From assembly GCA_049585595.1 (NCBI GenBank), contig JBAVAG010000023.1:2135-66134 (forward strand): DNA of 64,000 bases, given 5' to 3'. Made by a program: the position numbers and the translations under genes. The DNA is from Desulfobaccales bacterium (lineage in GTDB: Bacteria > Desulfobacterota > Desulfobaccia > Desulfobaccales > 0-14-0-80-60-11). Position 1 is the stretch's first letter, and the number at the start of each line of letters is the position of its first letter. Shown piece after piece: positions 5,371 through 40,590 of this stretch. The notes below the pieces were generated by a model. The model saw only the letters and a list, made by a program, of their open reading frames with translations. It did no database searches and was not told the DNA's origin.

Positions 5371-5542
5371 GCTTTTTACCCCCTTGGATTTTATTTTTCT
5401 TTAAGATGTGTTTGAGGGGCTGCTTTCTAACGGAAAAAATCCGCCCCATTCCGGAAAGTTTGCCGTCCAACTATTTCGGCTGGGGCCGGCGAAGCAATCC
5501 CGCCCCCCCCCGAAAAAAACGGGAATTCTTTACAGCCAACCA

Positions 5543-5618
5543 GCCAACCCGGCTGTCTTGGCTCTAAAGAGACCCGTCACTTTCCGCCCCCGCCTCGCGA
5601 TGGGTTTGCCTTTTCCGC
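5543..5618 (-). promoter_or_regulatory. GEMM-I (cyclic-dinucleotide) riboswitch aptamer, proximal copy A
   Basis: Minus-strand RNA: aaaaGGCAAACC-CAUC-GCGA-GGCG-GGGGCGGAAAGUGACGGGUCUC...AGACAGCCGGGUUGGC. Matches the GEMM-I core (GGCAAACC, GNRA-capped P1b, GGGRCGNAAAG, GGGUCU, AGCCGGGYUGSC). Lies in the 5' leader of the PEP-CTERM gene. Confidence 0.7.
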
Positions 5619-5621
5619 TAC

Positions 5622-5810: not shown

Positions 5811-5840
5811 AAAAAGCCGGATTGCCTTCCCAGGCAACCC
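5811..5840 (-). terminator. Intrinsic terminator / expression platform of riboswitch copy B
   Basis: Minus-strand RNA GGGUUGCCugggaaGGCAAUCCGGCUUUUU. The 5' arm overlaps the 3' strand of the aptamer. Confidence 0.5.
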
Positions 5841-5907
5841 AGCTATCTCTCAGAATTTGAGACCTGTGGCTTTCCGTCCCCAGCTCACGCTGGGTTTGGC
5901 TTTTCTG
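5833..5907 (-). promoter_or_regulatory. GEMM-I (cyclic-dinucleotide) riboswitch aptamer, distal copy B
   Basis: Minus-strand RNA: cagaaaaGCCAAACC-CAGC-GUGA-GCUG-GGGACGGAAAGCCACAGGUCUCAaauucUGAGAGAUAGCUGGGUUGCC. Perfect 6-bp P1b capped by the GNRA loop GUGA, plus the conserved junction strings. Confidence 0.75.
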
Positions 5908-5915
5908 TTGAAGCA

Positions 5916-6123: not shown

Positions 6124-6215
6124 TGGCGGAGAGAGAGGGATTCGAACCCTCGGTGGAGGTTTCCCCCCACACTCGCTTAGCAGGCGAGCACCTTCGGCCA
6201 CTCGGTCATCTCTCC
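6124..6215 (-). tRNA. tRNA-Ser (anticodon GCU)
   Basis: Reverse complement folds as a class II tRNA. Acceptor GGAGAGA/TCTCTCC + G + CCA; anticodon stem CTCGC/GCGAG with loop CT-GCT-AA; long variable arm; T-loop GGTTCGAATCC. Confidence 0.9.
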
Positions 6216-6519: not shown

Positions 6520-6607
6520 TGGCGGAGGGAGAGAGATTCGAACTCCCGGACCCCTAAAGGTCTGCGGTTTTCAAGACCGCCGCCTTAAGCCGCTCGGCCA
6601 TCCCTCC
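6520..6607 (-). tRNA. tRNA-Ser (anticodon UGA)
   Basis: Reverse complement: acceptor GGAGGGA/TCCCTCC + G + CCA; anticodon stem GCGGT/ACCGC with loop CT-TGA-AA; long variable arm; T-loop AGTTCGAATCT. Confidence 0.9.
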
Positions 6608-30600: not shown

Positions 30601-30684
30601 GCCATCAGCCTTCAGCAGTCAGCCTTCAGCCTGAAAATCGAGGTACTTTACTGATCACTGATCGCTGGTCACTGATTACTGATC
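30601..30684. repeat. Two heptamer arrays between trpD and trpC
   Basis: GCCATCA GCCTTCA GCAGTCA GCCTTCA GCCTGAA (30601-30636) and ACTGATC ACTGATC GCTGGTC ACTGATT ACTGATC (30649-30684). The second overlaps the trpD stop. Confidence 0.7.
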
Positions 30685-31748
30685 GCCGCCTCAAAGCTCC
30701 TGCTCTTGGCAATCAAGTCCTCCAGTTTCTGCAGGGCCTTCCCGGAGCGAATAGTCTGCCGGGCGAGTTCGAGACCCTGGGGAAAATCCGGGCTCAACCC
30801 CGCGGCTATGTATGCCGCGGCCGCGTTCAATGCCACCATATCTTCCCGGGCCCCCCCCTCCCCTGCCAGCACGGCGCGCACAATGCGGGCGTTTTCAAAG
30901 ACGTCGCCGCCCTTGATCTCCGCCAGGGTGGCCCGTTTAAGGCCGAAATCCTCCGGCGCGATGTCATAGGTGCGCACCTTGCCCTCCCGGAGTTGGCTCA
31001 CCCGGGTGGGGCCGACGATGCTGATTTCGTCATAGGAGCCTTCGCCATAGACCACAAAGGCGCTCTTGCCCCCCAGCTTCCCCAGGACGCAAGCCAGGGG
31101 CTCGGTGAGCCGGGCCTCGTAAACCCCCAGCACCTGGACGTTGGCGTCGGCCGGATTGGTGAGCGGCCCCAGGATATTGAAGATGGTGCGGATGCCGATC
31201 TCCCGCCGGGGACCGATGGCGTAGCGCATGCTCCCATGGAGTTGCGGGGCGAAGAGAAAGCCGATGCCCACTTCCAGGATGCACCAGGCCACCTGCTCCG
31301 AGGTGAGGGAGAGATTGATCCCCAGGGCCTCGATGACGTCCGCGGATCCGCAGCGGGAGGAGACTGCCCGGTTGCCGTGTTTGGCTACCTTGAGCCCGGC
31401 CCCGGCCACTACGAAGGCGGTGGTGGTGGAGACATTGAAGGTGGAAGTGGCGTCGCCGCCGGTGCCGCAGGTATCCACCACCGTCTCCCGATCCACGTTG
31501 ATTTCGTCCCGGTCCAGGCCGATGAGGCCACCGGAAATGGGAATGCGCGTGGCCTGGGTCCGCATCACCCGGGCCGCCGCGGTGATCTCCGCCACCGTCT
31601 CCCCCTTCATCCTAAGCGCGGTGATGAAGGAGCCGATCTGGGCCTCGGTGGCCTCGCCGCTCATGATAATCTCCATGGCCCGGGTCATCTCCGCTTCATT
31701 CAAGTCGTGCCCGTGAACCACCCGATAAATGGCTTCTTTCAGCATCAT
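30669..31748 (-). CDS. trpD: Anthranilate phosphoribosyltransferase
   Basis: Start set at [51 protein letters not shown] (360 codons). Motifs DTCGTGGD and KHGNRAVSS. The 523-aa track ORF is an upstream over-extension into the neighbouring gene. Confidence 0.9.
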
Positions 31749-31765
31749 TATAGTCCTGTAAGGGG

Positions 31766-33793
31766 CTATTTTATCCTGGTATAAATGGCCGCCAGGGCGA
31801 TGGGCGCCAGGACCCAACCCATGATTTTTTCCAGGTGCCAGTAAGCCCAGATATAGTTCGAGGGGGTCCCCGGCTGGAAAGCCCTGGCCGCCCCTAAATT
31901 GACTCCGGGCAGGAAGCGGTCCAGACTTACGGCCAACCCATTCCAAAAGGGCTGGCCGGAGGCGTGGAAGGCCAGCCAGCCCAGCAGCACCAGGGCCAGG
32001 GCTGGCCACAAGGTGCGGGCGGGTTTGCGGCCAAAGCCCGCCGGCCAATCCCAAAAAATCTTGGTAAGCCACCTGCCCGGGTGCCACCAGGGGAACTTTG
32101 CCAATTCCCGGCGCTTGCCGGTGATAAAGGCCTGGTCGGCCCATTTCCTGAGGCCGCCGCGCTGAAAAAAGGCGTCCAATTGCGAGTAATTCTGGGCGTT
32201 GAAGCGGCTGCGCCCCAGCCAATCCAGCAATTCCTGCCATTTTTCCGCTTTATGGGGCTCTCTTTTGGTGGTGAGGCTCTTATAGGTCAGCCCATCGAGA
32301 TAGAGTTTCAGATCGCGGTCTTGCGGGGCCGGCCATTCAGGTTCTACGAGTTGGAGATGGTAAAGCGAGGCGTCGCGCCAATCGGCCTCATCCTTGATGG
32401 CCAATCTCACCAACTCAACCGGGCCTTTAACCTCCAAACTCCTCGCCTCAAATCTTTTTACCTCAATATTTCTAATGGTTAATCGATGGGCGATCCTGGT
32501 GCGGTTCAGGACAATCTCATTTAGCGGCAGACCGCCAACGGAAAGGGGGTGCAGGCCTCGAATTACCAGGTCGGTTAGCTGCCCCTCCTTCAACACCAGG
32601 CCGCCGAAGAAAATGGTGCCGATGAAGAAGGCCCCCCGGCCTACCTTGAGGCCGGAGAAAATCGTGCTTTCACTCTTGAAGATGGCCTGGTCGGCATTGA
32701 AGACCCCGCCAACTTCGAGCCGGGAAAAATCGGCCGGACCCATAAACAAGGTCTTGAAGGTTTTAAGCCTGCCGAAAGGATCGAGGTAGAAATTGTCCTT
32801 CACCGCCATTCCGGTGAAATACGCCGACCCGGCGAAGATGGCGCCATTGGCGTGGAAACCGTGGCCCACCTGCACGGCCTCGAAATCACTGATGTGGCCT
32901 AAAAATTGTGCCTTATCCGCCGAAAACTCCCCACCAATCTGGGCGCCGCGAAAATTGACGCCGCTGCGAAAGGTGGCAGCCAGTTGGTGGCCGGATTTTT
33001 CCAAGGGATCCAGGTACAAATCCCCCGCTATCCCGACCAGGACAAAGCTCACCAGCCCGTGGAAATCGCAGCCCTGAAACGAGGCGTCCCGGCCCACCTG
33101 CATCCGCTGAAAATTGGCTTTATGATTGGGCGCCAGAAACCTAGCCCCCTGTGCCCCGAAGTCGCCTTTGATGACGGCGCTGCCAAAATCCGCCGGCCCG
33201 TGAAATTCCGCCCCATCGAAAAAAGCACCTTCACCCACATGCAGCCCGCTAAAGTTGGCCACCTGATCTTCTGCCAGGAACTTGGCCCCTTCCGCAGCGA
33301 ATTGGCCGTCGATGTCCGCGGCAGTGAGATTTACCATTCCGCTAAACACCGTGTCTCTACAAAACAGGCTTACCGCCAGTTTTAAGCGGTGAAAATCTAC
33401 CCCGTTCAAAAAATGTGAACCGTTTAATGATAAATATTCATCAAAACGAGCATCTCTAATGCTAAACCATTCTTTGAAGATACAAGCGTGTAAAGCCACC
33501 GCGACGGTAACCTCGCCATTCTCCAGGTCCAGCGGCTCCGCGATAACCGCACTGCTAATCCGCACCCCCAGGCGGTGCACCCGAACCCCCGGCAAATCCC
33601 CGGTCAACATCTCTTCCAGAAACCCGGCCCGCAGGCGCCGCTCTGCGGCCGCGTCCCCGAACTCCTGCTTCAGGTCGGCGATCTCCCCGGCGGCCGCCTG
33701 CTTCAGGACAAACTGCTCCTGCGGGCTGAGGGGCGAACCGTCACTTAGGGCAATTTCCTTTTTCGGGTCCATGGGGATTTTCGCTTTTTCCAA
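31766..33793 (-). CDS. Large membrane protein with degenerate pentapeptide-type repeats
   Basis: 675 aa. Central region of repeated F/L-x-G-A-x-F units ([46 protein letters not shown]...). C-terminal TM segments ([15 protein letters not shown]; [15 protein letters not shown]). Stop lies 17 nt upstream of the trpD ATG. Confidence 0.75.
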
Positions 33794-33872
33794 ATTCTCG
33801 ATCTTTAATATGGCAACGTTTCTTTCCGCCCCCCCTCACCCCACCCCTCTCCCGCGGTAGAGGCCTAGTTTC

Positions 33873-33932
33873 GGTGGGGCAGGCGTCCCTGCCTGCCTGC
33901 CTTGGTTGGCGGGCACGGAGGCCCGCCCCACC
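33873..33932. repeat. REP variant (GGTGGGGCAGGCGTCCCTGCC...GGCGGGCACGGAGGCCCGCCCCACC)
   Basis: GC palindromes with outer GGTGGGGC/GCCCCACC arms. Flanked by CCCCTCTCCC..GGGGAGAGGG hairpins (33826-33850, 33958-34005). Confidence 0.55.
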
Positions 33933-34087
33933 GATGGGAGTATTGCGGGAGATCCTTCCCTATCCCCTCTCCCCTAATGGGGGAGAGGGTTAGAGTGAGG
34001 GGAAATTAATCACTCACGCGTTTAAATGAATACGCTACCGGATTTACGAAATCGAGTGCTCACCAACTCACGTCCGGCGCCTAACCG

Positions 34088-34672
34088 TTACTCGCGATCT
34101 TCCCTGCCGATTTCGAAGGGCGCCGCGGCTCGCTCGGCCAAGACCCTGGCGCCCGCGGCCAGTCCGGCCTCCAGGGCCCGCTCGTTCATTTCCCGGCTGG
34201 CGGCCGGCACCCGGGCCAGGACCGCGGCTTTCAAACCTTCCCGGGAAACCGCGCCGGTGATGGCCGCCAGGGCCCCCAAGGCCACGATGTTGGCCATCAA
34301 TTCCCTGCCGGCCTCCCGGGCCATGCGGGTAAAGGGAATGGCCAGCGCCCCCGACTCCGGCACCTCTCGCACCAGGTCGGCGTCCACCAGCAGCACCCCT
34401 CCCTCTTTCAGGTCACCCAGAAAAACGTCCAGAGACTTCTGGTTCAGGGCGAGCAGCACGTCGGGCTGGATGGCCTTGGGGTAATCGATCTCCGCATCAC
34501 TGATGACCACCTCCGCCTTGGAGGCGCCCCCCCGGGCCTCGGGGCCATAACTCTGGGTCTGGCAGACAAACTTGCCGTCATAAATCCCGGCGGCCTCCGC
34601 CAGGATCACCCCTGCCAGCACCAACCCCTGGCCACCGGAGCCGGCCAGGCGAATCTCAAAGCGCATTGCCAT
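34088..34672 (-). CDS. 2-oxoacid:ferredoxin oxidoreductase, gamma subunit
   Basis: 194 aa. EIRLAGSGGQGLVLAGVILAEAA...QSYGPEARGGASKAEVVIS. Confidence 0.85.
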   Translation of the reverse strand: MAMRFEIRLAGSGGQGLVLAGVILAEAAGIYDGKFVCQTQSYGPEARGGASKAEVVISDAEIDYPKAIQPDVLLALNQKSLDVFLGDLKEGGVLLVDADLVREVPESGALAIPFTRMAREAGRELMANIVALGALAAITGAVSREGLKAAVLARVPAASREMNERALEAGLAAGARVLAERAAAPFEIGREDRE

Positions 34673-34682
34673 AATTTGGGCT

Positions 34683-34752
34683 CAAAGGTCGAGGTTATCA
34701 GTTCAAGGTTCAAAGGTTTGAGGTTTGAGTTTAGAGGGTTGCGGTTTAGGCT
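34683..34752. repeat. Heptamer array (NNAGGTT)n spanning the gamma/beta junction
   Basis: CAAAGGT CGAGGTT ATCAGTT CAAGGTT CAAAGGTT TGAGGTT TGAGTTT AGAGGGT TGCGGTT TAGGC. Covers the last ~16 codons and the stop of the beta-subunit gene. Confidence 0.65.
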
Positions 34753-35590
34753 TCGCTCCCAAGGCCGCCCGGGCCGCGACCTGGATGCGCCGGTATTCCT
34801 CGGTATAGATGGGCAGCTCGCGGTCCACCAGGACGCCGATGGTGATCTTGCCCGCCAGTTCCTCCGGGCTCATGGTGGCGGCCTTCTCCACCCGCACCGC
34901 CATCTCCTTCTGAGCCCGCATCATCTCCACCGGGCCGCCCTTCTTGTTCTTCGAGCCGAACTGGGTGTGGCAATGGCTGATGACCTCCACCACGGCAAAG
35001 CCCCCCTTCCTGAGGGCCTGTTCCATCAACCGGTCCAACAGGGTGACGTGGTACACCGTGCCCCGGCCCACCATGGCGGCGCCCGCCGTCACCGCCATCT
35101 CGCTGATGGAGAAGGCGTGTTCGATATGCCCGTATTGAGCAGTGGCCGCCCAGGCCCCGTAAGGGGTGGTGGGAGAAAATTGCCCGCCGGTCATGCCATA
35201 GATATTGTTGTTGATGATAATGGCCGTCAGGTCCAGATTGCGCCGGGCCGCATGGATGAAATGATTGCCGCCGATGGCGGTGGCGTCGCCGTCCCCCATG
35301 ACTACGATGACCTTGAGCTTGGGGTTGGCCAGCTTGACGCCGGTGGCAAAGGTGAGGGCCCGGCCGTGCGTGGTGTGCAGGGTATTGAAATCGACGTACA
35401 CGCTTATGCGCCCGGAACAGCCGATGCCCGAAACCAGGACGATCTCATCCTTGGTGTAGCCAATAGCGTCGATGGCCCGGATCATGGATCCCAGGACGAT
35501 GCCGTTGCCGCAGCCCGGACACCAGACGTGGGGGAACCTCTTCTCGTGGCGCAGGTATTTGTGAATCAGTTTGGTGACATCTTCGGCCAT
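34703..35590 (-). CDS. 2-oxoacid:ferredoxin oxidoreductase, beta (TPP-binding) subunit
   Basis: 295 aa. WCPGCGNGIVLG..., GIGCSGR, TPP motif VVMGDGDATAIGGNHFIHAARRN. Confidence 0.9.
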   Translation of the reverse strand: MAEDVTKLIHKYLRHEKRFPHVWCPGCGNGIVLGSMIRAIDAIGYTKDEIVLVSGIGCSGRISVYVDFNTLHTTHGRALTFATGVKLANPKLKVIVVMGDGDATAIGGNHFIHAARRNLDLTAIIINNNIYGMTGGQFSPTTPYGAWAATAQYGHIEHAFSISEMAVTAGAAMVGRGTVYHVTLLDRLMEQALRKGGFAVVEVISHCHTQFGSKNKKGGPVEMMRAQKEMAVRVEKAATMSPEELAGKITIGVLVDRELPIYTEEYRRIQVAARAALGAKPKPQPSKLKPQTFEP

Positions 35591-35660
35591 TTTCAGCTCT
35601 CCGCGAAGGCGAGGGTAGCACAGTTGGTGTAGCCCAAAATTTCCTTTTTTCCCGCTACCC

Positions 35661-35856
35661 TAATTTTGCCCTTTAATTTTTGCCTTTTTACTTTTTACTT
35701 TTGCCTTTTTGGGCATTGCGCACCATTTCGTAGGGGCGGGGTTTCCCCGCCCAGGGCGGCGAGACGCCGCCCTTACAACACAGGCTTCCAGCCTGTGATC
35801 GGGTCGCCCGGGCGCTCAGCTTTTTTTCTGGTGGCCGCAGGCTTTAGCCTGCGCTG
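35661..35856. repeat. Repeat-filled spacer between the alpha and beta subunit genes (T-rich heptamers plus three REP modules)
   Basis: TTTTGCC CTTTAAT TTTTGCC TTTTTAC TTTTTAC TTTTGCC TTTTTGG, followed by gtaggggcggggtttccccgcccagggcggcgagacgccgcccttac, cacaggcttccagcctgtgatcgggtcgccc and ggtggccgcaggctttagcctgcgc. Confidence 0.7.
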
Positions 35857-35868
35857 TAAGCAGTCCTC

Positions 35869-37011
35869 TTACATTTTCATGAGTCTATCCATAATCTCAT
35901 CCGGCGTAATCAAATTGCCGTCGATCCGATTCAAGGCCTCCACCCGGGTCAGGCCCTGGTTGATTCTTTTTACCTCCCGGGACATCTGGCCCATATTGAG
36001 CTCTGGCACCAGGGCGGCCCGCACCTGGCGCAGCAGCGGCTCCAACTGCCGCCGGGGAAAGGGCCAGAGGGTGATGAGTTGCAGCAGTCCGGCCTTGATC
36101 CCCCGCTCCCGGGCCTCGGCCACCGCCCGCCGGGCGCTGCGAGCCACCGAGCCGTAGGCCACCACCAGGATCTCGGCGTCCGCCGTCTGCACCTCTTTCA
36201 CCATCTGGATGTCATGGAAGTGTTGGGTGATCTTGCGGAACAGGCGGTTCAAAAAAGGCACGATCTCGTCGGGGCGTTCTGTGGGAAAACCCCGCACGTC
36301 ATGGATCAGACCGGTAACGTGGTAACGGTAGCCGTCCCCGAAGATGCCCATGGGGGGCACCCCGCTGGCGGTGTCGGCATACGGAAGGTACCATTCCGGC
36401 GGCATGTCCGGGCGCACCCGGTCCACTACCTCCAGGGGCGTCTCCGGCGGCAGCAGGAGCTTCTCCCGGGTGTGCCCAACCACTTCATCGCTCAAAATGA
36501 TCACCGGGGTCCGGTATTTTTCCGCCAGCGAGAAGGCCTTCACCGTGAGCTCGAAGCATTCCTGGGTGGTGGAGACCGCCAGGACGATGATGGGGTGGTC
36601 CCCGTGGGTCCCCCAGCGGGCCTGCTGCACGTCCCCCTGGCTGACGTGGGTGGCGAGACCCGTGGAAGGCCCGCCCCTCATAACGTTGACGATAACCGCG
36701 GGCACCTCGGCCACGCAGGCGAACCCCAGGTTCTCCTGCATCAGGGAAAACCCCGGGCCGCTGGTGGCGGTCATGGCCTTGGCCCCGGCCAGGGAGGCGC
36801 CGATAACCGCTCCCATGGAGGCGATTTCATCCTCCATCTGAATAAAGGTGCCGTCCACCGCGGGCAGGCGGTAGGACATGACTTCGCTGATCTCCGTGGC
36901 CGGGGTGATGGGATAGCCGGCAAAAAAACGGCAACCGGCATAGAGGGCGCCCTCCACCATGGCTTCGTTGCCTTGGAGCAGTCTGGCTTTCCCGGGGGTC
37001 CCGCCATTCAT
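35869..37011 (-). CDS. 2-oxoacid:ferredoxin oxidoreductase, alpha subunit
   Basis: Start set at MNGGTPGKARLLQGNEAMVEGALYAGCRFFAGYPITPATE (381 codons, SD GGAGAG), after the stop of the delta gene. Contains ...TATSGPGFSLMQE... The track ORF over-extends by 29 codons. Confidence 0.9.
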   Translation of the reverse strand: MNGGTPGKARLLQGNEAMVEGALYAGCRFFAGYPITPATEISEVMSYRLPAVDGTFIQMEDEIASMGAVIGASLAGAKAMTATSGPGFSLMQENLGFACVAEVPAVIVNVMRGGPSTGLATHVSQGDVQQARWGTHGDHPIIVLAVSTTQECFELTVKAFSLAEKYRTPVIILSDEVVGHTREKLLLPPETPLEVVDRVRPDMPPEWYLPYADTASGVPPMGIFGDGYRYHVTGLIHDVRGFPTERPDEIVPFLNRLFRKITQHFHDIQMVKEVQTADAEILVVAYGSVARSARRAVAEARERGIKAGLLQLITLWPFPRRQLEPLLRQVRAALVPELNMGQMSREVKRINQGLTRVEALNRIDGNLITPDEIMDRLMKM

Positions 37012-37039
37012 GGTTTCTCTCCCATCCAGTTTGCCAATG

Positions 37040-37351
37040 TCATTCCGTCTCCTCCGCTGCCGGTTCTTTGGCAACCACCTCCTTGACGCAGATGGCAAAG
37101 TCCGGACAATGCAGTTCGCACCAGCGGCAGCCGTTGCAGCGCTCAGGGCTCTTCACCCGCGGCGCCCCCTGGGCGTCCATCTCCAGGCACTGCCGGGGGC
37201 AAAAGGCGGCGCAGATGCCGCAGGACTTGCACCAGTCCCGAAAGATGTCGATTTCAAACTGCGGCTGGGGCTTTTCGGAAGGTTCCGGTCCGGCCGGCCC
37301 CTTCTTAGACTCTAAGGTCTGATTTGCCTCGAATTTCGTATCCTTATCCAT
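37040..37351 (-). CDS. 2-oxoacid:ferredoxin oxidoreductase, delta (2x[4Fe-4S] ferredoxin) subunit
   Basis: 103 aa. CKSCGICAAFCP ... CNGCRWCELHCP dicluster motifs. Confidence 0.85.
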   Translation of the reverse strand: MDKDTKFEANQTLESKKGPAGPEPSEKPQPQFEIDIFRDWCKSCGICAAFCPRQCLEMDAQGAPRVKSPERCNGCRWCELHCPDFAICVKEVVAKEPAAEETE

Positions 37352-38289: not shown

Positions 38290-39771
<1,482 letters not shown>

Positions 39772-39896
39772 GTCTGCTCCGTCTATTGATCTAAAATTTA
39801 ATCCAGATAACCGCCTTTAACCACAATTAAAATAATTATTTTTGTGTTTTGCCTGACGGTGCTCAATGAACGTTGCCAGCGGCGGTTGGCCGCGGT

Positions 39897-39928
39897 AAAA
39901 AAAAACCGCGTCCCTAATGGGCCACGGC
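39897..39928 (-). terminator. Second hairpin + U9 tract in the trpE leader (possible second terminator)
   Basis: Minus-strand RNA GCCGUGGCCCauuaGGGACGCGG followed by UUUUUUUUU. The alternative hairpin CGCGGU-U(n)-ACCGCG uses the same 3' arm. Confidence 0.4.
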
Positions 39929-39940
39929 TTTTATAAAGCG

Positions 39941-39974
39941 CCAAAAAACGGGGCCCCTCTCGCGAGGGGCCCCC
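39941..39974 (-). terminator. trp attenuator (intrinsic terminator)
   Basis: Minus-strand RNA GGGGCCCCUC-GCGA-GAGGGGCCCC followed by GUUUUUUGG. A perfect 10-bp GC stem about 30 nt after the leader-peptide stop. Confidence 0.8.
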
Positions 39975-40003
39975 AAATATCTCTCACTGGCTGGAGACGC
40001 ACC

Positions 40004-40060
40004 TCACGAAACCGCCATCACCCGCCACCAGCACCAGTTTTTTGAATCGAAATTTTTCAT
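40004..40060 (-). CDS. trpL: trp operon leader peptide (18 aa, MKNFDSKNWCWWRVMAVS)
   Basis: ATG at 40060 and TGA at 40006-40004. Three Trp codons within four positions (W9-C10-W11-W12). Sits between the promoter and the attenuator, upstream of trpE. Below the 60-aa cutoff of the ORF track. Confidence 0.8.
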   Translation of the reverse strand: MKNFDSKNWCWWRVMAVS

Positions 40061-40078
40061 CTTCTTTTCTCTGAAAAG

Positions 40079-40107
40079 TGTATATTCAAATCACTGATTG
40101 TTGTCAA
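40079..40107 (-). promoter_or_regulatory. Sigma70-type promoter of the trp operon
   Basis: Minus strand: TTGACA (40107-40102), 17 nt spacer, TATACA (40084-40079). The leader ATG lies 19 nt downstream of the -10. Confidence 0.6.
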
Positions 40108-40158
40108 TAGGTTTCCTGAAACGGAATCGAATTACCTTCAATAATCGGGAGAATCAGA

Positions 40159-40386
40159 TTGAAATTTCTCATTACCATATCCCAGGATGAAGACGGCATG
40201 TATATCGCCGAATGCCCTGCCATCCCGGGCTGCGTCAGCCAGGGACGGACAGAAGTTGAGGCGGAAAGAAACATTAATGAGGCGATCAAGGAATGCCTGG
40301 CCGTGCGCGCTGAAAAAGGATTACCGTTGACGGTCCCTACCCGCCAGATCGAGGTTGAGGTGGAATGGGGTCAATCCCCTTACTGA
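40159..40386 (+). CDS. hicB: HicB-family antitoxin (UPF0150 / RNase H-like fold)
   Basis: 75 aa. MKFLITISQDEDGMYIAECPAIPGCVSQGRTEVEAERNINEAIKECL is the typical HicB N-domain. TTG start with GGGAGA SD. Confidence 0.75.
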   Translation: MKFLITISQDEDGMYIAECPAIPGCVSQGRTEVEAERNINEAIKECLAVRAEKGLPLTVPTRQIEVEVEWGQSPY

Positions 40387-40590
40387 GGCCCAGGGAAGTT
40401 GTCAAAGTCTTTGAACGACTCGGCTGGGAAATAGCCCGCCTGCGCGGCAGCCACATCATCCTGATCAAGCCCGGCCATCTCGCCACCCCTTTCCATCCCC
40501 GATCATCAATTTGTCGCCCGGGGCACCTTGCGCAGCCTCCTGGCCAAGAGCGGAGTATCTTTGGAAGAACTTTTGAATAATTTAGATTGA
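40365..40590 (+). pseudogene. hicA: HicA-family mRNA-interferase toxin, disrupted by a +1 frame change in a C-run
   Basis: Frame 0 gives ...REVVKVFERLGWEIARLRGSHIILIKPGHLAT, then nonsense. Frame +1 from about 40489 gives LSIPDHQFVARGTLRSLLAKSGVSLEELLNNLD* (canonical HicA C-terminus, stop at 40588-40590). The junction is at CCACCCC (40484-40490). Confidence 0.65.

Follow-up and report, generated by a model that had tools for sequence, protein, structure and literature searches.

We analyzed a stretch of 64,000 nucleotides (the window) from contig JBAVAG010000023.1 of a bacterium of the Desulfobaccales (Thermodesulfobacteriota), with a focus on the region upstream of trpE, which carries a putative tryptophan attenuator. 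All trp genes of the window are on the minus strand, and so are the features described below unless stated otherwise. The cluster starts with trpE-trpG, continues with the genes of a 2-oxoacid:ferredoxin oxidoreductase and of a pentapeptide-repeat protein, and ends with trpDCFBA, an arrangement that an initial annotation of this DNA had aptly called an atypical trp operon.

Upstream of trpE, a -35 box TTGACA (40107-40102), read from the sequence, is followed after a 17-nt spacer by a -10 box TATACA (40084-40079). The ATG of a trpL-like leader open reading frame (ORF) lies 18 nt after the -10 box, at 40060. This ORF (40060-40004) consists of 18 codons encoding MKNFDSKNWCWWRVMAVS and a UGA stop codon (TGA at 40006-40004), and reads ATG AAA AAT TTC GAT TCA AAA AAC TGG TGC TGG TGG CGG GTG ATG GCG GTT TCG TGA. 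Its three regulatory Trp codons are at 40036-40034, 40030-40028 and 40027-40025. Next comes a GC-rich hairpin with a U-run, terminator 1 (T1), GGGGCCCCUC-GCGA-GAGGGGCCCC at 39973-39950 followed by G and six U (39949-39943). At the DNA level, it reads GGGGCCCCTC-GCGA-GAGGGGCCCC then GTTTTTT, has 10 pairs in the terminator scan, 9 of which are G-C, and reaches -26.0 kcal/mol (z -4.0) when folded alone. The gene trpE starts at 39771, behind a ribosome binding site (RBS) GGAG (39780-39777). The initial annotation had placed all these elements correctly, from the promoter to the start of trpE. It had proposed a single terminator, and while T1 stands, a second conserved terminator that is part of the element had been overlooked. 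This terminator 2 (T2), AAAAGCCGUGGCCC-AUUA-GGGACGCGG followed by nine U, spans 39932-39897 (hairpin 39928-39906) and has -17.4 kcal/mol and z -4.4.

The RNA of this region can form alternative hairpins, which we name after their segments, numbered 1 to 6. In hairpin 1:2 (P1, 40038-39986; -21.6 kcal/mol, z -1.8), the Trp and Cys codons pair with a conserved block located after the stop codon, GCGUC..CCAGCCAG. The antiterminator, 2:3, pairs UUUCGUGAGG(U)G(C)GUCUCCAG (40011-39991) with UUGGGGGCCCCUCGCGAGA (39976-39958), has -24.6 kcal/mol and z -2.6, and includes in its 5' strand the last sense codon and the stop codon. T1 corresponds to 3:4 and T2 to 5:6. Finally, a candidate hairpin 4:5 (39956-39919) joins the 3' arm and U-tract of T1 to the A-tract and 5' arm of T2 (GGGCC.CG.UUUUU / AAAAG.CG.GGCCC). 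In the minimum-energy fold of the nascent leader, the antiterminator covers the whole 5' arm of T1 (UUUCGUGAGG.U.G.CGUCUCCAG with UUGGGGGCCCCUCGCGAGA), which accounts for the conservation of the block after the stop codon. The initial annotation had recognized the core of this helix, and its extent of about 10 bp turned out to be too short.

Conservation of the leader among relatives

Judged from the sequence, no single feature of the leader is beyond chance by itself, and it is the conservation in relatives that gives them significance. The window is G-rich and has 24 clusters of TGG (at least 3 in 4 triplets), such that a cluster of Trp codons alone is not rare, and the region has 3 terminator-like matches for a shuffled expectation of 2.6. 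The promoter scan did not list TTGACA-17-TATACA because its -10 hexamer ends in A. We therefore had to consider that the hexamers, the Trp codons and the hairpin co-occur by chance in an intergenic region, which these counts of TGG clusters and terminator-like matches would allow. The comparative data refute this explanation and leave it with a practically negligible probability, since the whole arrangement is found in register in 63 distinct leaders, always before trpE.

The TrpE of the window has hundreds of relatives at 74-95% identity. For a sample blind to the leader, contigs were fetched by their TrpE homologue alone (P0004, P0005, P0010, P0020, P0029, P0041, P0088 and P0111; 95-75% identity). 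The eight distinct relatives all keep the promoter, the mini-ORF, the stop context, T1 and T2. Their mini-ORF lies 210-450 nt upstream of trpE and has the core N-W-C-W-W, except for one with W-C-G-W. The leader peptides have N-termini that are unrelated in sequence and length, as can be seen in L081 (MKNFGSKNWCWWRLMAVS), L084 (MKNFGSKNWCWWRVIADS), L085 (MLNSSTNNWCWWCVIADS), L088 (MNQLVELKNNWCGWRAILDS), L091 (MIIRVNNWCWWREMAGS), L092 (MANRQNWCWWRVSSSP), L093 (MKIFIGDIWCWWPVSVP) and L097 (MTNLVNNWCWWRVMAGS). The stop context, (U/C)CGUGAGGUGCGUCC in the RNA and (T/C)CGTGAGGTGCGTCC in the DNA, is common to the TrpE-anchored relatives. A scan of a genome collection with TrpE was less informative: among the matches listed, the TrpE were distant (45-57% identity), and L001, the single close locus, extends 78 nt upstream of the gene.

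Metagenome contigs were scanned with a pattern of T1 and T2 only, in which the ORF was not specified. This gave 110 matches. The GTGAGG stop context is present in 65 of them, and all 65 have a Trp-rich ORF that ends 28-33 nt before T1. The leader was found in each of the 48 matches with a detectable downstream trpE, while none of the 45 matches lacking the leader has a trpE; in the other contigs with the leader, the downstream part is too short to show this gene. Hence, the Trp-rich mini-ORF, on whose conservation in related genomes the initial annotation had made its proposal depend, is kept in the eight TrpE-anchored relatives and in 65 metagenome loci.

After deduplication, 63 distinct leaders were aligned (alignment A1). 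The regulatory codons encode W in 61, C in 56, W in 59 and W in 62 leaders, respectively, and the number of TGG at these four fixed positions is three in 56 leaders, four in one and two in six. The stop codon is always UGA, 28-33 nt before T1. The peptide shows partial conservation in its C-terminal half (R-V-M/I-A-G/D-S). At the 5' end, a promoter of the form TTGACN-17/18-TAnnnn occupies the same place in 63/63 genuine leaders, and an in-frame ATG with no intervening stop follows shortly after the -10 box in all of them. No TrpR-type operator was evident at the leader promoter, where no test aimed at one was made. Sensing of cysteine by the UGC codon was considered and rejected: W, G, R or L replace C in 7/63 leaders, and the codon lies in helix P1. 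The Cys codon is thus probably structural rather than a sensor.

The distance between the -10 box and the ATG, measured in 62 leaders, is bimodal. It is of 5-10 nt in 38 leaders, in which the AUG is expected at or beside the transcript start, making the mRNA effectively leaderless. In the other 24, including the window, it is of 15-25 nt and contains a purine-rich stretch (AGAGAAAAGAAG in the window, whose predicted 5' untranslated region (UTR) would be purine-rich and of about 11 nt).

These observations also bear on whether the mini-ORF is translated at all. If it were not, the leader could be an attenuator that binds a protein, a tRNA or a ligand, in the manner of TRAP, T-box or riboswitch systems. 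The Shine-Dalgarno-like stretch of the window is indeed weak, and the UGGUGCUGGUGG segment doubles as a strand of an RNA helix. Yet, the in-frame ATG is retained in every leader despite the unrelated N-termini, and the fixed stop codon belongs to the antiterminator strand, so that a ribosome terminating there would mask this strand. The element is also short and has no conserved unpaired pocket. In line with this, Rfam has no family at the leader, neither in the whole window at the gathering threshold nor in 39600-40300 at E<=10 with permissive filters, and these scans gave no match to Trp_leader (RF00513) or to T-box. The weak matches that we did obtain (mmgR, mir-329 and CRISPR-DR63) merely reflect hairpins. 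We consider an untranslated mini-ORF very improbable. The geometry between promoter and ATG and the conservation of the frame instead lead us to infer that the leader ORF is translated.

Alternative pairings and the position of the ribosome

The consensus fold of the 63 leaders obtained with RNAalifold contains both terminators and the pairing of the Trp codons with the block after the stop codon. The fraction of paired cells is 99.5% for T1, 90% for T2, 87% for P1 and 97.9% for the antiterminator, whose core (columns 60-68:106-115) compares with 39-60% in slid controls. In this core, double-sided changes affect 12 cells, compared with 2.6 +/- 1.2 in shuffles, and none of 500 shuffles reached 12. 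Pair 61-114 is U-A in 46 leaders (TCG-TGA with loop ..CACGA) and C-G in 11 (CCG-TGA with ..CACGG). Pair 63-111 is G-C in 61 leaders, A-U in one (L137, CCA-TGA with ..CATGG) and G-U in one. The pairing of UUUCGUGAGG (40011-40002) with CCUCGCGAGA (39967-39958) put forward by the initial annotation is thus borne out, both by the fold of the nascent leader and by compensatory changes. The proposed hairpin of the Trp codons with CCAGCCAG fares less well: it is part of the minimum-energy fold in the window and is well paired in the family, as given above for P1, but its advantage over shuffles is marginal (mean z -1.7). The mean energies of the alternative hairpins in the family are -24.6 kcal/mol for P1, -24.2 for the antiterminator, -25.1 for T1, -21.4 for 4:5 and -19.0 for T2.

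We then mimicked the ribosome by masking the nucleotides from -15 to +12 around the A site and folding the 63 leaders. Without ribosome, the full transcript forms T1 in 63/63 and T2 in 61/63. When the ribosome is at the stop codon, T1 forms in 63/63 leaders and the antiterminator in none, in agreement with the earlier suggestion that a ribosome reaching this codon masks the antiterminator. When it is at the last Trp codon and the transcript ends in the loop of T1, the antiterminator forms in 60/63. With a stalled ribosome and a transcript ending after the 5' arm of T2, the antiterminator together with 4:5 is the minimum-energy fold in 42/63. These models point to a read-through that would depend on tryptophan.

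The working model is as follows. A sigma-70-type promoter (40107-40079) would start a transcript whose first feature is the 18-codon ORF with W-C-W-W. When charged tRNA-Trp is plentiful, the ribosome would reach the UGA (40006-40004) and its footprint would cover the strand CUCGUGAGG. With this strand covered, T1 (39973-39950, U6) would form, then T2 (39928-39906, U9), and transcription would end before trpE. When charged tRNA-Trp is scarce, the ribosome would stall at the UGG codons and melt hairpin 1:2, leaving the strand at the stop codon free to pair with the 5' arm and loop of T1 once these are transcribed, as the antiterminator. The 3' arm and U-tract of T1, thereby freed, could pair with the A-tract and 5' arm of T2 (4:5), both terminators would fail, and the RNA polymerase would enter trpE.

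Several observations weigh against this interpretation. The leader ORF of the window has only the weak, purine-rich Shine-Dalgarno-like stretch mentioned above. T1 and T2 are almost invariant and show little covariation, and in the metagenome set this invariance is partly imposed by the search pattern. The C-G variants of pair 61-114 probably share ancestry in one clade, so that the compensatory changes amount to at least two independent events and not to eleven. At equilibrium, with a stalled ribosome and the full transcript, T1 still forms in 59/63 leaders. The switch would therefore have to be kinetic, i.e., co-transcriptional, in these models; attenuation of the trp operon in Escherichia coli is likewise kinetic, with a thermodynamically favored terminator. 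Besides the marginal score of hairpin 1:2, the nascent fold without ribosome prefers the antiterminator over this hairpin in 42/63 leaders, and the branch of the classical model in which a lack of translation leads to termination is therefore not well supported here. Taking these points together with the comparative evidence, we estimate at about 0.8-0.85 the probability that the element is a leader-peptide transcription attenuator that acts through the ribosome, upstream of trpE-trpG, and responds to charged tRNA-Trp.

The second terminator and its possible coupling to the first

T2 is present in all 9 TrpE-anchored leaders and in 63/63 leaders overall, 17-23 nt after the stem of T1, with U-runs of 5-9. 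No gene converges on T2, which is conserved together with the leader, and we rejected the possibility that it terminates a neighboring gene. We also discarded the idea of a further promoter between T2 and trpE. The scan found none on the minus strand, and the region is too short in L154 and L109, where the U-run of T2 ends about 31-41 nt before the ATG of trpE. Because these two loci leave no room for another promoter, T2 cannot be an unconditional stop. The pairing 4:5 is the only conserved candidate for its bypass.

Two accounts of T2 can be given. In the first, the leader would be a six-segment system in which one Trp-rich peptide switches two terminators, with 1:2, 3:4 and 5:6 formed when transcription stops and 2:3 and 4:5 formed upon read-through, like a row of dominoes. 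We regard this as an even bet. In the second, the attenuator would have the four classical segments. T2 would be leaky and uncoupled from it, serving as a fail-safe or marking where a longer leader RNA ends. This is possible, and on balance somewhat doubtful.

The energies of the window copy fit the uncoupled account best, since T2 (-17.4 kcal/mol) is more stable there than 4:5 (-15.1 kcal/mol, z -0.8 to -0.9, depending on the estimate). Folding at full length with a forced antiterminator yields T2 in 31/63 leaders, compared with 28/63 for 4:5. Furthermore, the 4:5 helix shows no covariation in alignment A1, and part of its stability is the automatic complementarity between the U-tract and the A-tract of any adjacent terminators. 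On the other hand, an unconditional terminator with such U-runs before trpE would cap expression even under starvation, and L154 and L109 lack the space for a promoter after it. At the scale of the family, 4:5 has a mean z of -3.07, with 54/63 leaders below -2, and its mean energy is stronger than that of T2 (-21.4 versus -19.0 kcal/mol).

The pattern of conservation also speaks against an uncoupled T2. The 5' arm of T2 is invariant in the 9 unbiased loci. The 3' partner of this arm does vary and frequently contains mismatches (the upper stem is 65-84% paired). A GG between the stem of T1 and its U-tract, which was outside the search pattern and is not explained by T1, is kept in 60-63 of the 63 leaders and pairs with C150/C151 of the 5' arm of T2. 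Finally, two other leaders of Desulfobacterota show the same complementarity between terminators, even though they are unrelated to the family of the window (about 50% TrpE identity). L046 (..CSWWWRANPTG, about 240 nt upstream of trpE) and L052 (..NWRWRWSGPN.., about 250 nt upstream) both have two strong terminators, with an inter-terminator hairpin of -20.2 kcal/mol (z -3.6) in the former and of -23.0 kcal/mol (z -6.1) in the latter. Leaders with a Trp-rich peptide and tandem terminators may be a recurrent design in Desulfobacterota. If the six-segment account is true, this design would occur in at least three unrelated Trp leaders of the phylum, namely the family of the window, L046 and L052. 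In this account, the 3' arm and U-tract of T1 would act as the antiterminator of T2, a coupling for which we see the evidence as evenly poised.

The region between T2 and trpE varies in length and content across the family. About 30 of 50 members, including L084, L088, L097, L100 and L144, have there a long AU-rich inverted repeat placed before the RBS of trpE. Its units are of about 10 nt, ACGCCGAT... facing ...ATCGGCGT, with TTTATCTGTG, TTTATCGGCG and TTCATCTGCG as examples. The window has a degenerate version of it at about 39858-39800, and the members without the repeat have GC-rich, REP-like palindromes at the same place. The AU-rich repeat could form a hairpin that stabilizes the mRNA, act as an operator or represent a small mobile repeat.

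Known attenuators and the genes possibly under control

The trpL leader of E. coli has adjacent Trp codons near the end of its ORF, hairpins 1:2, 2:3 and 3:4, a GC-rich terminator with a U-run, and a stop-codon ribosome that masks segment 2. The leader described here shares with it the short ORF with Trp codons, the alternative hairpins, the GC-rich terminator and, in our models, the masking of segment 2 and the kinetic control. It differs by having W-C-W-W instead of W-W codons, a second conserved terminator, and trpE-trpG followed by non-trp genes. While the leader of the window would work like Trp_leader, it does not match RF00513 and is not a member of that sequence family.

The closest characterized analogue is trpL-trpE(G) of Sinorhizobium meliloti, where trpL is leaderless and the attenuator has trpE(G) alone behind it, the other trp genes being located elsewhere (PMC6614838, PMC7298713). 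Both systems are placed before the anthranilate synthase genes alone, and both have the ORF at or near the 5' end of the transcript (in 38/62 leaders here). A leaderless leader ORF is thus not new in kind, since that of S. meliloti is already so. However, S. meliloti belongs to the Alphaproteobacteria, and its leader has three stem-loops, one terminator and demonstrated functions in trans, whereas that of the Desulfobaccales has two terminators and no sequence similarity to it.

This likeness raises the question of whether the terminated leader RNA or the peptide has an additional function in trans, on the model of rnTrpL and peTrpL of S. meliloti. A short or leaderless trpL before trpE(G) only, with trpD and the following genes separate, would suit such a function (PMC6614838, PMC7298713), as would an RNA sequence that varies unusually little while TrpE identities range over 70-96%, and a peptide with a semi-conserved C-terminal half. 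The invariance is nevertheless already explained by the pairing of each segment in two or three alternative helices, and the RNA that encodes the conserved half of the peptide is that of P1 and of the antiterminator. An additional function in trans is therefore unlikely. Similar constraints have been described outside the Proteobacteria, in Corynebacterium and Streptomyces, whose predicted trp attenuators have double or triple UGG, GC-rich terminators and conserved GGCC-type triples in both antiterminator and terminator (PMC1262725, Seliverstov et al. 2005). By analogy, GGCC-type motifs shared by alternative helices likely explain the near-invariance of the Desulfobaccales leaders. The attenuators of these two genera have a single terminator, unrelated sequences and another operon composition.

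Other systems share isolated traits with this one. The polycysteine small ORFs of mycobacterial attenuators (bioRxiv 10.1101/834739) are leaderless and sense an amino acid, which is cysteine in their case, in a different phylum. The mgtCBR leader of Salmonella (PMC3641672) has more than one conditional termination element, with two separate short ORFs that respond to different signals, versus one Trp-rich ORF here. The rimP-leader of Gammaproteobacteria (PMC2965389) has two terminators and no leader peptide, while the terminators of the Desulfobaccales are complementary to each other and follow one ORF. Our literature search found no description of two terminators after a single leader peptide, nor any paper on trp attenuation in Desulfobaccales or in Thermodesulfobacteriota, although comparative surveys may have predicted it earlier in "delta-proteobacteria". 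The initial annotation had described leader-peptide attenuation as best known in gamma-proteobacteria, and a clean example in this lineage as worth documenting. The Desulfobaccales case holds, but this view overstates the surprise, since Trp leader peptides were already known outside Gammaproteobacteria. We also found Trp-rich leader candidates upstream of trpE in Desulfobulbia (L040, NWWWC) and in Bacteroidota (L027 and L053). From these sequences, leader-peptide control of trpE appears to be widespread.

A different situation is found in the Desulfobulbia-type loci L002-L008, which have a conserved hairpin, GCCAUGG...CCAUGGC followed by U8, 30-80 nt upstream of trpE. We rejected it as an attenuator of trpE, since it seems to terminate a conserved upstream gene for a small basic protein. 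These loci have no Trp-rich ORF, and L040 is the only one among the Desulfobulbia loci with a Trp-rich leader. In L002-L008, trpE is probably controlled differently.

Downstream of the leader, trpE (39771-38290) encodes component I of anthranilate synthase, a protein of 493 aa with the Pfam domains Anth_synt_I_N (PF04715) and Chorismate_bind (PF00425) and a match to NCBIfam TIGR00564 above the cut-off. It is followed, in the window and in every relative, by trpG (38122-37550), the glutamine amidotransferase component of the same enzyme. The 2-oxoacid:acceptor (ferredoxin) oxidoreductase has four subunits, delta (37351-37040), alpha (to 35869), beta (35590-34703) and gamma (34672-34088), of which alpha passes NCBIfam NF006412 and delta is a Fer4 protein. 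An ORF of 126 aa, with no Pfam match in relatives, sits between alpha and beta. After the gene of the pentapeptide-repeat protein (33793-31766, 675 aa) come trpD, trpC, trpF, trpB and trpA (about 31700-26803). The longest ORF of trpD (523 aa, 30669-32240) shares about 470 nt with the 3' end of the pentapeptide-repeat gene; its true start is probably near 31700, given that the Pfam TrpD domains begin at residue 168.

The trp cluster is thus split by about 5.6 kb (31766-37351) between trpG and trpD, and the terminator scan of the stretch between trpE-trpG and trpDCFBA gave no convincing intrinsic terminator. The attenuator possibly controls, beyond trpE-trpG, genes further downstream, including the embedded oxidoreductase. 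The order of trpE, trpG and the oxidoreductase genes, which is retained in every relative examined, could reflect a link of this enzyme to the metabolism of aromatic or indole 2-oxoacids, possibly with co-regulation by the Trp attenuator.

On the other side of the leader promoter, and divergent from it, are the genes of a HicB-like antitoxin (75 aa) and of a HicA-like toxin (71 aa, with an apparently aberrant C-terminus), at 40159-40580 on the plus strand. Among relatives, this pair is present, partial or absent at the same spot, which makes the DNA immediately upstream of the leader promoter an insertion site. Elsewhere in the window, two c-di-GMP-I-type riboswitch aptamers in tandem (5540-5620 and 5829-5908) adjoin tRNA genes (6127-6215 and 6523-6607); one is the GGC variant (RF03167, 64.5 bits) and the other matches RF01051 (39.6 bits).

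These results extend a textbook mechanism, with comparative support, to uncultured Desulfobaccales, with the tandem and possibly coupled terminators as its distinctive feature. The alignment of 63 leaders can be used for annotation, where it would mark trpE-trpG, and possibly the embedded oxidoreductase, as regulated by tryptophan. The family also offers a natural comparison between leaderless initiation and initiation with a short UTR of the Shine-Dalgarno type in one and the same regulatory ORF. If the six-segment account is true, the second terminator would lower the basal level of expression without loss of induction. If the coupling is real, a single sensing event would be relayed along a chain of hairpins of equal energy to tandem terminators, which would be relevant to RNA regulation and to the design of synthetic attenuators.

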